Notes under the pieces: model-generated | What the model saw: the letters and a program-made list of their open reading frames with translations, nothing else | Databases searched by the model: none | Told to the model about the DNA's origin: nothing | NCBI RefSeq assembly: GCF_013122565.1 | Contig: NZ_CP053258.1 | From: Escherichia coli | Lineage (GTDB): Bacteria; Pseudomonadota; Gammaproteobacteria; Enterobacterales; Enterobacteriaceae | Reading direction: 5' to 3' (one strand) | Length of the DNA stretch: 64,000 nt | Made by a program: the position numbers and the translations under genes | In this document: positions 20,167 through 28,777 of the stretch, piece by piece | How the letters are laid out: every line of letters begins with the position of its first letter | Position numbering within the stretch: the first letter of the stretch is position 1

Positions 20167-21384
20167 TTACAGCTGATGATAACCAGAAAGGAAACGCGCG
20201 AACTTGCTCAAAGACAGCTCGATATCATCGACACGCGGTAGCGTGACAATGCGGAAGTGATCCGGCCACGGCCAGTTGAATGCCGTCCCTTGCACCAACA
20301 GAACTTTTTCCTGCAACAGGAAATCCAACACCATTTTCTGATCGTCGTGAATGTTAAAGCGTTTGGCGTCGATTTTCGGGAACATATACAGCGCACCACG
20401 AGGTTTCACGCAGGAAACGCCCGGAATATCGTTGATCAATTCCCATGCGCGGTTACGCTGCTCATAAAGACGACCGCCAGGGGTAATAAATTCACTGATG
20501 CTCTGATAACCACCCAGCGCGGTCTGAATGGCGTGTTGCGCAGGAACGTTAGCACACAGGCGCATTGAAGCCAGCATTTCCAGACCTTCGATGTAGCCTT
20601 TGGCGTGTTTTTTCGGCCCGTTCAACACCATCCACCCCTGACGGAAGCCTGCAACGCGGTACGTTTTCGACAGGCCGTTAAAGGTAATGGTCAGCAGGTC
20701 AGGTGCCAACGGCGCAATTGAGTGATGCTCAGCGTCGTCGTAGAGAATTTTGTCATAAATTTCATCGGCGAAGATAATGAGATTATGCTGACGTGCAATC
20801 TCCACAATCTCCATTAAAAGCTCTTTGGAATATACCGCGCCGGTTGGGTTATTTGGGTTGATAATAACAATCCCACGCGTACGAGGCGTAATTTTAGCGC
20901 GAATATCATCGAGGTCCGGGAACCAGTCAGAGGATTCATCGCAAAGATAATGTACTGCTTTACCGCTGGAGAGCGAAACCGCCGCGGTCCATAGTGGGTA
21001 ATCAGGTGCAGGAACTAACATTTCGTCCCCGCTGTTCAGCAATGCCTGCATTGCCTGAACGATAAGCTCCGATACACCATTGCCGATGTAAATATCTTCC
21101 ACGGTAACATCACGCATGCCACGAGCCTGGTAGTGCTGCATGATGGCTTTACGCGCGGAGTAAAGCCCTTTGGAATCGCAATACCCTTGAGCGGTAGGCA
21201 GGTTGCGTATCACATCAACGAGGATTTCATCTGGCGCGTCAAAACCGAATGGGGCTGGGTTGCCGATGTTCAGTTTCAGTACCTTGTTACCTTCTTCTTC
21301 CAGGCGTTTTGCTTCTTTCAGCACCGGACCACGGATGTCATAACAGACATTCTCTAATTTGCTGGATTTTTCAATGGGGGACAT
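20167..21384 (-). CDS. alaA: Glutamate-pyruvate aminotransferase AlaA (405 aa)
   Basis: Class I PLP aminotransferase with the lysine motif SKTYRVAGFR; conserved locus. Confidence 0.9.
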   Translation of the reverse strand: MSPIEKSSKLENVCYDIRGPVLKEAKRLEEEGNKVLKLNIGNPAPFGFDAPDEILVDVIRNLPTAQGYCDSKGLYSARKAIMQHYQARGMRDVTVEDIYIGNGVSELIVQAMQALLNSGDEMLVPAPDYPLWTAAVSLSSGKAVHYLCDESSDWFPDLDDIRAKITPRTRGIVIINPNNPTGAVYSKELLMEIVEIARQHNLIIFADEIYDKILYDDAEHHSIAPLAPDLLTITFNGLSKTYRVAGFRQGWMVLNGPKKHAKGYIEGLEMLASMRLCANVPAQHAIQTALGGYQSISEFITPGGRLYEQRNRAWELINDIPGVSCVKPRGALYMFPKIDAKRFNIHDDQKMVLDFLLQEKVLLVQGTAFNWPWPDHFRIVTLPRVDDIELSLSKFARFLSGYHQL

Positions 21385-23241
<1,857 letters not shown>

Positions 23242-23285
23242 TCGACGAACCATAGATAATTCCTGGAACAATAGTGTAAAAACGA

Positions 23286-23323
23286 GCCGCTGGGGGTGTT
23301 TTATACCCCAGCGGCTTTTTTTT
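23286..23323 (+). terminator. Rho-independent terminator after lrhA
   Basis: Hairpin GCCGCTGGGG ... CCCCAGCGGC followed by eight T. Confidence 0.7.
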
Positions 23324-23870
23324 AGTAAAAATCCTTCCTCGCATAGTGCAGAACGTACAAAACTGTTCATTTTTCAATCACCAGAGATTCACACCCCGTA
23401 CGCACAAATAATCGCTTGAAAAAAATCACCTGCTACAATGATGTTAAAAAATACGTAAATTTGTTGCTGCGTTTTTGTTATGGAATGACAAAAGCGTGTC
23501 ACAGATCAAGAAAATACTCTCTTTTGGGGGGAGGAATCGACACAAATTCCTGTCAAAATAGACCCGTATTTTTTCCATTGCTTCACAACGGACACGATTC
23601 AACAACATCTAATTATCCTGGAGTCGTCAAGGATCTGGGATGAAAGGGCATTAAATGCTAATGCTGTTGATATTATGTAAACTAATGTGAAGAAACTTTT
23701 GTTAAAGTTGACAAAAGGTTATAGAAAGGAGTAAAAGACCACATCAATTAGCTGTATAAAAGAGTTTCTACAGTAATTGTAAGGTTTTTTTTATTCCTCC
23801 CCATGAATCGATGTGGCGTCCATCTGCCGTGAAGAGCAGTGAATCTGGCGCTACTTTTGATGAGTAAGCA
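23324..23870 (+). promoter_or_regulatory. nuo operon promoter and leader region
   Basis: Long AT-rich non-coding region upstream of nuoA; this operon is known to have a complex multi-factor promoter. Confidence 0.55.
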
Positions 23871-24314
23871 ATGAGTATGTCAACATCCACTGAAGTCATC
23901 GCTCATCACTGGGCATTCGCTATCTTTCTTATCGTTGCCATTGGCCTGTGTTGCCTGATGCTGGTAGGCGGTTGGTTTTTAGGCGGTCGCGCACGCGCGA
24001 GGTCGAAAAACGTGCCGTTTGAATCCGGTATCGACTCGGTCGGCTCCGCCCGCTTACGCCTGTCCGCCAAGTTTTATCTGGTGGCCATGTTCTTCGTTAT
24101 CTTCGACGTTGAAGCGCTGTATCTGTTCGCATGGTCAACCTCTATCCGCGAAAGCGGCTGGGTAGGCTTTGTGGAAGCTGCAATTTTTATTTTTGTGTTA
24201 CTGGCAGGTCTGGTTTATCTGGTGCGTATTGGCGCGCTGGACTGGACGCCCGCGCGTTCACGCCGCGAGCGTATGAACCCGGAAACGAACAGTATCGCTA
24301 ATCGTCAACGCTAA
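23871..24314 (+). CDS. nuoA: NADH:quinone oxidoreductase subunit A (147 aa)
   Basis: First gene of the 13-gene nuo operon; membrane subunit. Confidence 0.95.
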
Positions 24315-28725: not shown

Positions 28726-28777
28726 CCGAATTTCGATTAACGCTCAGTCTCTGACTGAGAAAACTGGAAGCATGCTA

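Follow-up and report, generated by a model that had tools for sequence, protein, structure and literature searches.

What does the AT-rich DNA between lrhA and nuoA of Escherichia coli contribute to expression of the nuo operon, and how much of it is transcribed as leader? The stretch in question is positions 23324-23870 of the window, the 64,000-nucleotide piece of E. coli DNA (contig NZ_CP053258.1) that was analysed here. The nuo promoter and regulatory region of K-12 was reportedly the subject of work by Bongaerts in 1995 and Wackwitz in 1999. Control of nuo by Fis, ArcA, NarL, FNR and IHF is cited in published papers, and the lrhA-nuoA region is essentially this well-studied complex I (nuo) control region, already known and ordinary in kind. 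We consider it very probable that the region is the cis-regulatory region together with the 5' UTR of the nuoA-N (NADH dehydrogenase I) operon, arranged in three parts.

The ORF calls on the window place lrhA at 22303-23241 and nuoA at 23871-24314 on the plus strand, with an intergenic region of 629 bp between them (23242-23870, 38.3% GC). The preliminary description, which gave about 550 bp of AT-rich sequence from the lrhA terminator to nuoA, had the extent and the coordinates right: the stretch is 547 bp long at 37.5% GC, compared with 51.5% for the whole window. The gene that it precedes is the following.

23871-24314, plus strand: nuoA coding sequence, first gene of the nuoA-N operon, called as an ORF and annotated as nuoA in E. 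coli genomes.

The encoded NuoA is 100% identical to that of K-12, and the gene order, read from the ORFs and from the way RefSeq annotates the matching E. coli loci, is lrhA, the region, nuoA and then nuoB and nuoC. The region is no product of chance: of 5,426 complete E. coli genomes, 5,423 contain it, with identities of 90-98%, with at least 80% of the intergenic region covered in 5,422 E. coli genomes, and the closest complete E. coli genome reaches at most 98.1% identity over the intergenic region. Compared with a K-12-like strain, the window is 97.3% identical across the 629 bp. Of the 17 differences, 11 fall before position 23440, where the terminator hairpin and the unconserved spacer lie, and from 23776 onward it aligns with K-12 letter for letter. 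The K-12 region thus resembles that of the window in its flanking genes and length, and the RyhB site, both ArcA sites and the promoter defined by TSS-seq are all kept, whereas the window differs in carrying C at 23664 in the proximal ArcA site and TAAAAG in place of the K-12 TAAAAA as the -10 element, changes whose functional effect, if any, is putative. Among the 81 Enterobacteriaceae loci compared, 78 have an intergenic length between 606 and 664 bp, with a median of 629. As an observation in its own right, this length is held even where LrhA identity drops to 64%.

Conservation was measured over these 81 loci, with the four-fold sites of nuoA (0.65) as the yardstick. Two features occupy the end of the region that faces lrhA.

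23284-23323, plus strand: hairpin and T8 run downstream of lrhA, with the look of an intrinsic terminator when folded.
23324-23439, no strand assigned: unconserved AT-rich spacer, mean identity to the window 0.33 over the 81 loci.

In the hairpin a 12-bp stem (23284-23295 with 23306-23317) closes a loop of 10 nt, with a T8 run at 23316-23323, and the structure folds with a dG of -29.3 kcal/mol (z = -5.75), which none of 200 shuffles equals. A strict promoter/terminator consensus scan missed it because the loop is longer than the 8-nt limit of the tool. Its stem and T-run are moderately conserved among the 81 loci, and since an A-run precedes the hairpin, it could serve as a bidirectional intrinsic terminator; the lrhA RNA 3' end in K-12 Term-seq data, however, maps some 12 nt before the hairpin begins and not at the T-run. 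The roughly 115 bp that follow are effectively unalignable, at 0.33 compared with 0.65 at the nuoA four-fold sites, and this first part of the region, 23324-23439, would be an unconstrained spacer behind the hairpin. The suggestion that the length of the region leaves room for additional cis elements holds, with conserved blocks in 23440-23870, subject to the correction that 23324-23439 adds nothing detectable.

The promoter and the start sites divide the remaining sequence into transcribed and untranscribed DNA.

23692-23737, plus strand: core sigma-70 promoter block, with -35 TTGACA at 23708-23713, an 18-bp spacer and -10 TAAAAG at 23732-23737.
23743 (A) and 23746 (A), plus strand: transcription start sites from TSS-seq (Kim 2012), mapped via the K-12 alignment.

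The -35 hexamer is perfect, and the sigma-70 hexamers, 18 bp apart, lie 6-9 nt upstream of the TSS-seq starts within a 45-bp block (23692-23736) that is 98% conserved over the 81 loci and whose conservation extends to Yersinia, Serratia and Erwinia. The -10 element is TAAAAA in K-12 and most species, with a G at 23737 in the window, in E. albertii and in some E. coli strains; the resulting TAAAAG is weak and is without the consensus final T, which is why a strict promoter scan of the region found nothing. The TSS-seq starts, U00096.2 positions 2403222 (4,218 reads) and 2403219 (1,744 reads) in Kim 2012, give a 5' UTR of 128 or 125 nt, and the same data list no further start from lrhA to 23746. 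The "long leader" of the preliminary description has to be given up on this point, as a transcript that begins at the TSS-seq start takes in no more than the final 125-128 nt, and the rest is promoter-upstream DNA; the comparison with mapped nuo starts that it proposed does yield a start, at 23743/23746, but no long transcribed leader. Older starts near 23783 and about 23610, implied by positions in Park 2013 and Chareyre 2019, would give leaders of about 88 and about 261 nt and disagree with the TSS-seq data.

The second part of the region, 23440-23742, would be about 300 bp of factor-binding DNA that feeds one strong sigma-70 promoter. Long blocks that are at least 90% identical across the 81 loci lie within 23440-23870, and the features upstream of the -35 hexamer are these.

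23442-23484, plus strand: distal ArcA region (nuoA2, Park 2013) with three direct-repeat elements, identical to the K-12 ChIP-seq site TGTTAAAAAATACGTAAATTTGTTGCTGCGTTTTTGTTATGGA.
23486-23520, no strand assigned: 32-bp block TGACAAAAGCGTGTCACAGATCAAGAAAATAC and then a NarL-type heptamer, conservation 0.94.
23527-23560, no strand assigned: blocks GGGGGAGGAAT and AATTCCTGTCAAAATA, candidate regulatory elements, conservation 0.97 and 0.93.
23588-23604, minus strand: invariant block ACGGACACGATTCAACA (minus strand TGAATCGTGTCC), a Cra-like operator, conservation 0.98-1.00 over the 81 loci.
23646-23694, plus strand: proximal ArcA region nuoA1 (23664-23694), a ChIP-seq site with repeats, and an upstream conserved block GGGCATTAAATGCTAATG.

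Both nuoA1 and nuoA2 are ArcA binding regions defined by ChIP-seq in K-12 (Park 2013). The TGTTAAAAAA and TTTGTTGCTGC parts of nuoA2 are at least 90% conserved, and the K-12 nuoA1 site GTGTTGATATTATGTAAACTAATGTGAAGAA differs from the window at 1 of 31 bases, the first (C at 23664). Repeats resembling TGTTAA are phased at about 10-11 bp here, with hexamers starting at 23656, 23665, 23676, 23686 and 23700, and phosphorylated ArcA (ArcA-P) bound along this proximal direct-repeat run, which reaches the -35 hexamer, would act as a repressor when growth is micro-aerobic or anaerobic, by occluding the promoter or wrapping it. The Cra-like box at 23588-23604 fits TGAAWCGWTTCA at 10 of 12 positions and recurs as CTGACaCGATTTAG ahead of nuoA in Yersinia, Serratia, Dickeya, Erwinia and Leminorella. 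Published ChIP-exo data show Cra bound upstream of nuoA, and expression on acetate has been reported to fall in a cra-dependent manner; we infer from the sequence that this box is the Cra site. Direct CpxR repression of nuo has likewise been published for the lrhA-nuoA region, and a CpxR-like GTAAAnnnnnGTGAA with one mismatch lies at 23677-23691 (conservation 0.88).

The remaining blocks carry motif matches of several kinds. Inside 23486-23520 the motif scan finds an ATCAA half-site that is FNR/IHF-like, and the NarL-type heptamer is TACTCTC in the window, whereas most other genera have a perfect one, TACTCCT or TACCCCT; any assignment of this block to a factor is putative. A variable 7-bp spacer, CGACACA at 23538-23544, parts GGGGGAGGAAT from AATTCCTGTCAAAATA, and a Fis-like match falls at 23551-23565. 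The motif matches that are conserved comprise the Cra-like, CpxR-like and NarL-like sites and the ArcA repeats. The scans for regulator sites called for by the preliminary description gave a divided result, in that the ArcA repeats and the NarL-like site are conserved candidates, whereas consensus counts set against shuffles show no enrichment for FNR (14 vs 8.7), Fis (16 vs 14.2) or IHF (1 vs 1.2), and the CRP pattern is not enriched over shuffles either. The NarL, FNR, IHF, Fis and CpxR sites are putative, placed by motif and conservation. Taken with the Cra-like box at -147, the CpxR- and NarL-like motifs and the Fis- and IHF-like AT-rich blocks may account for the control by carbon source, envelope stress, nitrate and growth phase that has been published. 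The broader expectation of multi-factor nuo control is well founded, with published ArcA, Cra, CpxR and RyhB data mapping to the region. The condition that the preliminary description named as refuting does not hold, since the region has recognisable sites and its strong conservation extends far outside the core promoter. Hidden coding genes were considered at 23416-23643 (plus strand), 23444-23608 (minus strand) and 23768-23899 (minus strand) and rejected, each being intact in only 2-4 of 82 aligned sequences; 3-base periodicity in conservation was looked for across the region and none was found.

The third part, 23743-23870, would be the 128-nt leader, in which four features succeed one another, the last of them running into nuoA.

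23745-23779, plus strand: 5'-proximal leader stem-loop, from the MFE fold.
23784-23812, plus strand: unpaired conserved stretch, consisting of a U-tract, UUCCUCCCC and then AUGAAUCGAUG, unpaired in the MFE and centroid folds.
23813-23861, plus strand: two-tier hairpin and then the U-tract UUUUGAU, with the look of an intrinsic terminator or attenuator, from covariation and Term-seq.
23862-23882, plus strand: nuoA translation initiation region and RyhB pairing site, from validation in K-12 and a duplex calculation.

The 5' stem-loop is present in nearly all orthologues in differing sequences (dG -3.7 to -10.9), with 9 of its 14 pairs changed on both sides, and it may stabilise the mRNA. In the unpaired stretch behind it, positions 23787-23807 have a conservation of 0.91, and at the DNA level the motif scan finds a Cra-like TGAATCGATGTG. 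At the other end of the leader, the pairing of RyhB over the nuoA ribosome-binding site and start codon has been validated by compensatory mutations in K-12 (Chareyre 2019), and our seed-region duplex calculation places RyhB nucleotides ~37-57 on window positions ~23862-23882. The AAGCAAUG core around the nuoA start complements the RyhB seed, the pairing site is the same as in K-12, and TAAGCAATG at the nuoA start is 96-100% conserved; RyhB bound at this ribosome-binding region would shut off translation under iron starvation. A globally structured leader was considered and discarded, as shuffled sequences fold just as well as the whole leader (158 nt; z = +0.13) and only local hairpins are supported.

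The less expected detail of this otherwise known region is the two-tier hairpin, which seems to be uncharacterised and whose function is putative. Its outer stem pairs 23813-23820 with 23847-23854, and its inner stem pairs 23824-23827 with 23836-23839 and C23828 with G23834. RNAalifold returns 13 pairs, three of them with compensatory changes; 98.4% of the alignment cells are paired, compared with 14-59% in slid controls, and 22 cells carry double changes, a count that 0 of 500 shuffles reach. The hairpin folds in all 81 loci, with a dG of -10.1 to -17.5 (-15.3 kcal/mol in the window), and a U-tract follows it in all 81, weak in a few (CACUUUGG, UAAUUUGG), with a U-rich tail kept even where the tail sequence varies and with the inner stem and its flanking bases invariant. 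A covariance model finds the element in Yersinia, Serratia, Erwinia and Dickeya, and it is unique in the window. Two RNA 3' ends that Term-seq places at 2405086 and 2405082 in K-12 correspond to 23857 and 23861 (-14 and -10 from the nuoA ATG), 3 and 7 nt past the stem in locally identical sequence. They are abundant in three data sets, and this abundance was seen in iron-replete LB, where RyhB is low. These ends have a Rho score of 0.82 ("No") and an intrinsic terminator score of 11.56, against a study threshold of 3. The element thus has the hairpin, the U-tract and the Rho-independent 3' ends of an intrinsic terminator, at which a fraction of transcripts would end.

In its form the element agrees with the 5'-UTR 3' ends of Adams 2021, which share a hairpin and U-tract in a 5' UTR and Rho-independent ends 3-7 nt past the stem; there it is only a row in a supplementary table, and what is added here is its conservation with covariation across Enterobacterales. 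With respect to the RyhB-nuoA interaction (Chareyre 2019), what is new is the terminator-like hairpin directly upstream of the pairing site. An Rfam covariance search of 23324-23870 gave no credible match at E <= 1, and the only gathering-level Rfam match in the window is the nuoG RNA (RF01748) at 28728-28770, which is also a small conserved enterobacterial hairpin in the nuo transcript but which differs in place (upstream of nuoG) and in sequence. We found no paper that discusses the nuoA leader hairpin, and the RIL-seq-related papers searched make no mention of it.

As an addition to the main explanation, the hairpin may be a working attenuator and/or the source of a stable RNA of ~115-119 nt (23743 to 23857/23861, its 5' and 3' ends coming from separate data sets) that acts in trans via the single-stranded UUCCUCCCC...GAAUCGAUG, a reading to which we give somewhat less than even credence. 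It draws on the covariation and near-universal folding, on the position of the 3' ends with their high intrinsic score and lack of Rho dependence, on an sRNA-like layout, in which a 5' hairpin is followed by a conserved single-stranded segment with a U-tract and then by a terminator, and on the extension to Yersiniaceae and Erwiniaceae of an element that is absent from Rfam. However, no conserved alternative (antiterminator) pairing was found in the leader alignment, internal loops interrupt the hairpin, whose tail is weak in some of the genera, no regulatory element is noted there by the authors of the Term-seq study, and the 3' ends could equally be due to decay that halts at a stable hairpin. 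The nuo operon is, moreover, well expressed, and therefore any termination in the leader must be partial. The aligned sequences offer no likely means of making termination conditional, through either an antiterminator or a leader peptide. Still more tentatively, the leader terminator might tune complex I synthesis and release the ~115-119 nt RNA, whose invariant single-stranded UUCCUCCCC-AUGAAUCGAUG would then act in trans (as an sRNA or sponge) or dock a termination-switching factor.

That the hairpin is instead a platform for translation control seems rather unlikely to us. Such a platform would dock Hfq in aid of RyhB or would keep a weak ribosome-binding site accessible, with the 3' ends being decay intermediates after cleavage triggered by RyhB or RNase E. 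The hairpin and its U-tract do lie directly 5' of the validated RyhB site, the nuoA Shine-Dalgarno sequence is weak, and the invariant inner stem and flanks suggest recognition by a factor, but the 3' ends are abundant under iron-replete conditions and have a high intrinsic-terminator score. A platform and attenuation are not separable on present data, because an RNA trimmed by a 3'-to-5' exonuclease ends where a terminated one does.

An upstream ORF that controls the terminator or couples to nuoA is very improbable. The two candidates, at ATG 23803 (MNRCGVHLP and a stop) and ATG 23811 (MWRPSAVKSSESGATFDE and a stop), both overlap the 5' arm of the hairpin, and the first ends, in Citrobacter and several genera, at a TGA overlapping the nuoA ATG, while the second stops in E. 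coli 3 nt before that ATG. The first start codon is, however, lost in 6 of 82 aligned sequences and missing in Yersinia, Serratia, Dickeya and Erwinia; the second is CTG, GTG or absent in others, 1-nt indels break the frame, the second ORF shrinks to a methionine and a stop in >20 species, and the upstream CCUCCCC is the opposite of a Shine-Dalgarno sequence. Neither is listed in the supplement of a ribosome-profiling study of small ORFs, and leader peptides at ATG 23803/23811 are largely refuted as a conserved feature, with starts lost and frames broken. Least credible of all is a transcript spanning all 547 bp, by lrhA read-through or from a far-upstream promoter, in which GGGGAGGAAT (23528-23537) and ATTCCTCCCC (23794-23803) would form a long-range RNA switch: the two make an exact 10-mer inverted repeat in two conserved blocks and Park 2013 (Table S6) implies an older upstream start near 23610, but TSS-seq has no start between 23746 and lrhA, even the ~23610 start lies 3' of 23537 and so leaves the upstream partner outside every mapped transcript, changes in the upstream block (GGCAT, GATGAAT) never have a compensating change in the leader, with no co-variation between the two, and a strong hairpin and T8 run stand between lrhA and the region.

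As first stated, the finding re-identifies the textbook multi-regulator complex I promoter region and changes nothing. The base-level map sets the unconstrained spacer apart from the constrained DNA, and within the latter it marks 23486-23517, 23527-23560 and 23784-23812 as deeply conserved stretches for which we found no published binding factor. The leader hairpin is backed by both covariation and published RNA 3' ends, and it offers a modest, testable lead, namely that it attenuates transcription in the leader or gives rise to an RNA derived from the 5' UTR. If the hairpin does regulate, the largest iron-sulfur respiratory enzyme would be set at initiation (by ArcA, NarL, FNR, Fis, IHF, Cra and CpxR), at termination in the leader and at translation (by RyhB). 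A functional leader terminator that releases such an RNA would add a riboregulatory level, so far uncharacterised, to the control of the respiratory chain, with conservation reaching from Escherichia to Yersinia, Serratia and Erwinia.

The preliminary description of 23324-23870 had placed an AT-rich stretch between an lrhA terminator and nuoA, and as an observation this is correct: the stretch is 547 bp long with a GC content of 37.5%, against 51.5% for the whole window, it follows a hairpin with a T8 run, and the complete lrhA-nuoA gap is 629 bp (23242-23870). The gene identities are backed by the RefSeq annotation of matching E. coli loci and by protein identity.

20167-21384, minus strand: alaA (ORF call)
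22303-23241: lrhA (ORF; LrhA 99.4% identical to that of a K-12-like strain)
23284-23323: hairpin with a 12-bp GC-rich stem, and T8 run (dG -29.3 kcal/mol, z -5.75)
23442-23484: ArcA region, identical to the sequence of Park et al. 2013
23664-23694: ArcA region, differing from the sequence of Park et al. 2013 at the first base
23677-91: CpxR-site-like GTAAAnnnnnGTGAA (motif resemblance)
23708-13 and 23732-37: promoter, perfect TTGACA, 18-bp spacer and TAAAAG, directly upstream of the TSS-seq starts
23745-23779: 5' stem-loop, which nearly all orthologues have, with differing sequences
23784-23812: conserved segment between the two leader hairpins, predicted unpaired, with a U-tract, UUCCUCCCC and then AUGAAUCGAUG
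23813-20/23847-54: outer stem of the two-tier hairpin (RNAalifold)
23824-27/23836-39 plus C23828-G23834: its inner stem (RNAalifold)
23871-24314: nuoA (ORF; NuoA 100% identical to that of a K-12-like strain)
nuoB and nuoC are also carried in the window (ORF call)

The hairpin at 23284-23323 was missed by the consensus terminator scan because its loop is 10 nt; with an A-run on one flank and a T-run on the other, it may terminate in both directions. The scan's only terminator-like match, at 23950-23972 (+) within the nuoA CDS, is a weak stem of 8 pairs, 3 of them GC, and is most likely due to chance. The K-12 Term-seq listing puts the 'primary' lrhA 3' end at U00096.3 2405672/3 (~23272), ~30 nt past the stop codon and short of the strong hairpin and T8 by roughly 12 nt, and contains no 3' end at the T-run of that hairpin.

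K-12 positions were transferred to the window through an alignment without gaps downstream of 23290. The nuoA starts found by TSS-seq (Kim et al. 2012), U00096.2 2403222 (4,218 reads) and 2403219 (1,744 reads), correspond to 23743 and 23746, giving a 5' UTR of 128 or 125 nt, and the same data list no further start between these and lrhA. The promoter sits within a 45-bp block that is 98% conserved, and its -10 hexamer is TAAAAA in K-12 and most genera; the variant G at 23737 is common to the window, E. albertii and some E. coli strains. Older starts, at about 23783 and 23610, can be deduced from the Park table and from the way Chareyre et al. 2019 number G86/C87. Because 23783 is the 3' foot of a leader hairpin, with sequence that is not conserved as a promoter, we suspect a processing site or a reverse-transcriptase stop there. 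Given the mapped starts and the strong lrhA-distal hairpin with T8, a genuinely long transcribed leader is unsupported. What lies here is the already known nuo regulatory region; the preliminary reading stands, but the word "leader" fits only the 125-128 nt that are transcribed.

The gap is present in 5,423 of 5,426 complete E. coli genomes, chromosomal in every case, at 90-98.1% identity, and is the lrhA-nuoA intergenic region. Its best complete E. coli match is 98.1% identical (12 differences), and 1,043 genomes form a separate class of 90-95% identity. Of the 17 positions at which the window departs from the K-12-like strain, 11 precede 23440. It differs from all three compared E. coli sequences at, for example, 23248, 23251, 23266-7, 23416, 23640, 23664 and 23775; the source is a somewhat divergent E. 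coli-like lineage. We compared the window with 80 further Enterobacteriaceae loci, one per species. Gap length is 606-664 bp (median 629) in 78 of the 81 loci, although LrhA identity falls to 64%, and three species carry insertions (747, 748 and 937 bp). This near-invariance holds although the first ~115 bp are free to vary in sequence, and the distance from lrhA to the nuo promoter may itself be constrained. Conservation across the 81 loci is sharply bipartite: 23324-23439 is essentially unalignable (mean identity 0.33), while 23440-23742 and 23743-23870 average 0.73 and 0.75, with blocks at 0.9-1.0, against a reference level of 0.65 at four-fold degenerate sites of nuoA. Orthologues do not retain the mechanical ORFs of the gap, nor does conservation rise and fall with codon position, so that it is DNA sites or RNA, and not protein, that are under constraint.

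The two ArcA regions come from ChIP-seq, with ArcA-dependent repression of 2.7-fold (Park et al. 2013); CpxR represses nuo directly, ChIP-exo shows Cra bound upstream of nuoA, and on acetate a cra knock-out lowers nuo expression. As related in citing papers, control by ArcA, NarL, FNR, IHF and Fis is published. The block at 23588-23604 is invariant, and its TGAATCGTGTCC box is also found upstream of nuoA in Yersinia, Serratia, Dickeya, Erwinia and Leminorella, the last with a different upstream gene. On the minus strand it fits a Cra half-palindrome consensus at 10 of 12 positions, making it a candidate Cra site. TGTTAA-like hexamers beginning at 23656, 23665, 23676, 23686 and 23700 form a phased run that abuts the -35 hexamer, consistent with repression by ArcA-P through promoter occlusion. 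At 23514-20 E. coli has an imperfect NarL-type heptamer, where most other genera have a perfect one (TACTCCT or TACCCCT); the promoter spacer holds a further perfect heptamer, AGGAGTA. Matches to FNR, Fis, IHF and CRP patterns did not exceed their frequency in shuffled sequence, so any such sites are tentative, and reading motifs against conservation assigned no factor to the blocks at 23486-23517 and 23527-23560. GAATCG(A/T) occurs in three copies (23534-23540, 23594-23600 and 23805-23811), and an exact 10-mer inverted repeat, GGGGAGGAAT / ATTCCTCCCC, lies at 23528-23537 and 23794-23803; all are in conserved blocks, at ~-210, -147 and +60 from the start site, and one protein, perhaps Cra-like, might bind both sides of the promoter at these repeats. 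Pairing of the two 10-nt halves in RNA was rejected, as there is no co-variation and the upstream half is outside every mapped transcript.

Taken whole, the 158 nt that begin at the start site are no more stably folded than shuffled sequence (z = +0.13); cross-species comparison supports two local leader structures. In the two-tier hairpin, RNAalifold finds three pairs with compensatory changes (in 7, 6 and 12 sequences), along with many switches from G-U to G-C or A-U, and the frequent G-U pairs locate the structure in sense RNA and not in DNA. Across an alignment of 37 species, 98.4% of cells are paired, a share that falls to 14-59% with slid partners, and the 22 double-change cells were reached in 0 of 500 shuffles. 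The hairpin folds in all 81 orthologues (dG -10.1 to -17.5 kcal/mol) with a U-rich tail after it. A covariance model of it gives a single match in the window (111 bits). Ahead of nuoA in other genera the model scores 73.8 bits in Yersinia, 70.1 in Serratia and 51.0 in Erwinia, with a weaker match in Dickeya (42.9) and none in Leminorella. Rfam has no family at this position, and our literature search turned up no publication on a structure in the nuoA leader. Across all 64 kb of the window, Rfam yields just one gathering-level match, to the nuoG RNA motif (RF01748, 50.3 bits) at 28728-28770 (+), a conserved hairpin without known function inside the same operon. Leader ORFs from ATG 23803 and ATG 23811 were discarded, since start codon or frame is lost in many genera; neither has an entry in the supplement of a ribosome-profiling study.

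RNA 3' ends are abundant at this hairpin in K-12. The Term-seq supplementary tables of Adams et al. 2021 give U00096.3 2405086 (LB OD 0.4; 282,730 reads) and 2405082 (475,924 and 124,622 reads in the other two data sets), so that nuoA-leader 3' ends occur in all three. They map to 23857 and 23861, which puts them 3 and 7 nt past the stem and leaves 14 and 10 nt to the nuoA ATG. Their Rho score is 0.82 (not a Rho region) and their intrinsic-terminator score 11.56 (threshold 3); the study noted no regulatory element for them, and its main text does not mention nuoA. Pairing of RyhB over the nuoA ribosome-binding site and start codon has been shown with compensatory mutants; the window is identical to K-12 at that site, and a seed-only duplex calculation places the pairing at ~23862-23882. 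Serratia, Dickeya and Erwinia have no ATG at the annotated nuoA start (23871); they read ATAG, AAG and AGAG there. The second ATG (23877, ATGTCAACA) is the start that these families share, so translation in E. coli may truly begin two codons after the annotated position.

The neighbouring alaA-lrhA gap (21385-22302; 918 bp, GC 30-40%) is more AT-rich still. In K-12, lrhA has a 371-nt 5' UTR (TSS 2405034, U00096.2), with RNA 3' ends 50 nt before its ATG and further upstream (2406691 and 2406933, U00096.3), from which lrhA itself may have a regulated long leader.

What is established for the nuo control region is a single promoter whose starts are mapped, a pair of ArcA regions, pairing of RyhB at the start codon and, in K-12, RNA 3' ends located at the leader hairpin. 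In the mechanism that we propose, upstream factors would set initiation, with Cra at ~-147 and with the blocks from -260 to -180 serving NarL, Fis and IHF, and ArcA-P and probably CpxR would work on the -90 to -35 repeats. A fraction of transcripts would then stop at the leader hairpin, and read-through mRNA would be translated from a weak ribosome-binding site that RyhB could block. Real premature termination at the hairpin, with a regulatory consequence, is a tentative proposal on our part. The hairpin may be a regulated attenuator, the source of a trans-acting RNA or a platform for Hfq/RyhB, or it may simply be a decay barrier. The 3' ends had been detected by others, who did not characterise the hairpin; it would belong with the known 5' UTR intrinsic terminators or 5'-UTR-derived RNAs, and it is possible, if rather unlikely, that it is a functional terminator that tunes complex I and yields an RNA with a trans-acting or factor-docking segment.
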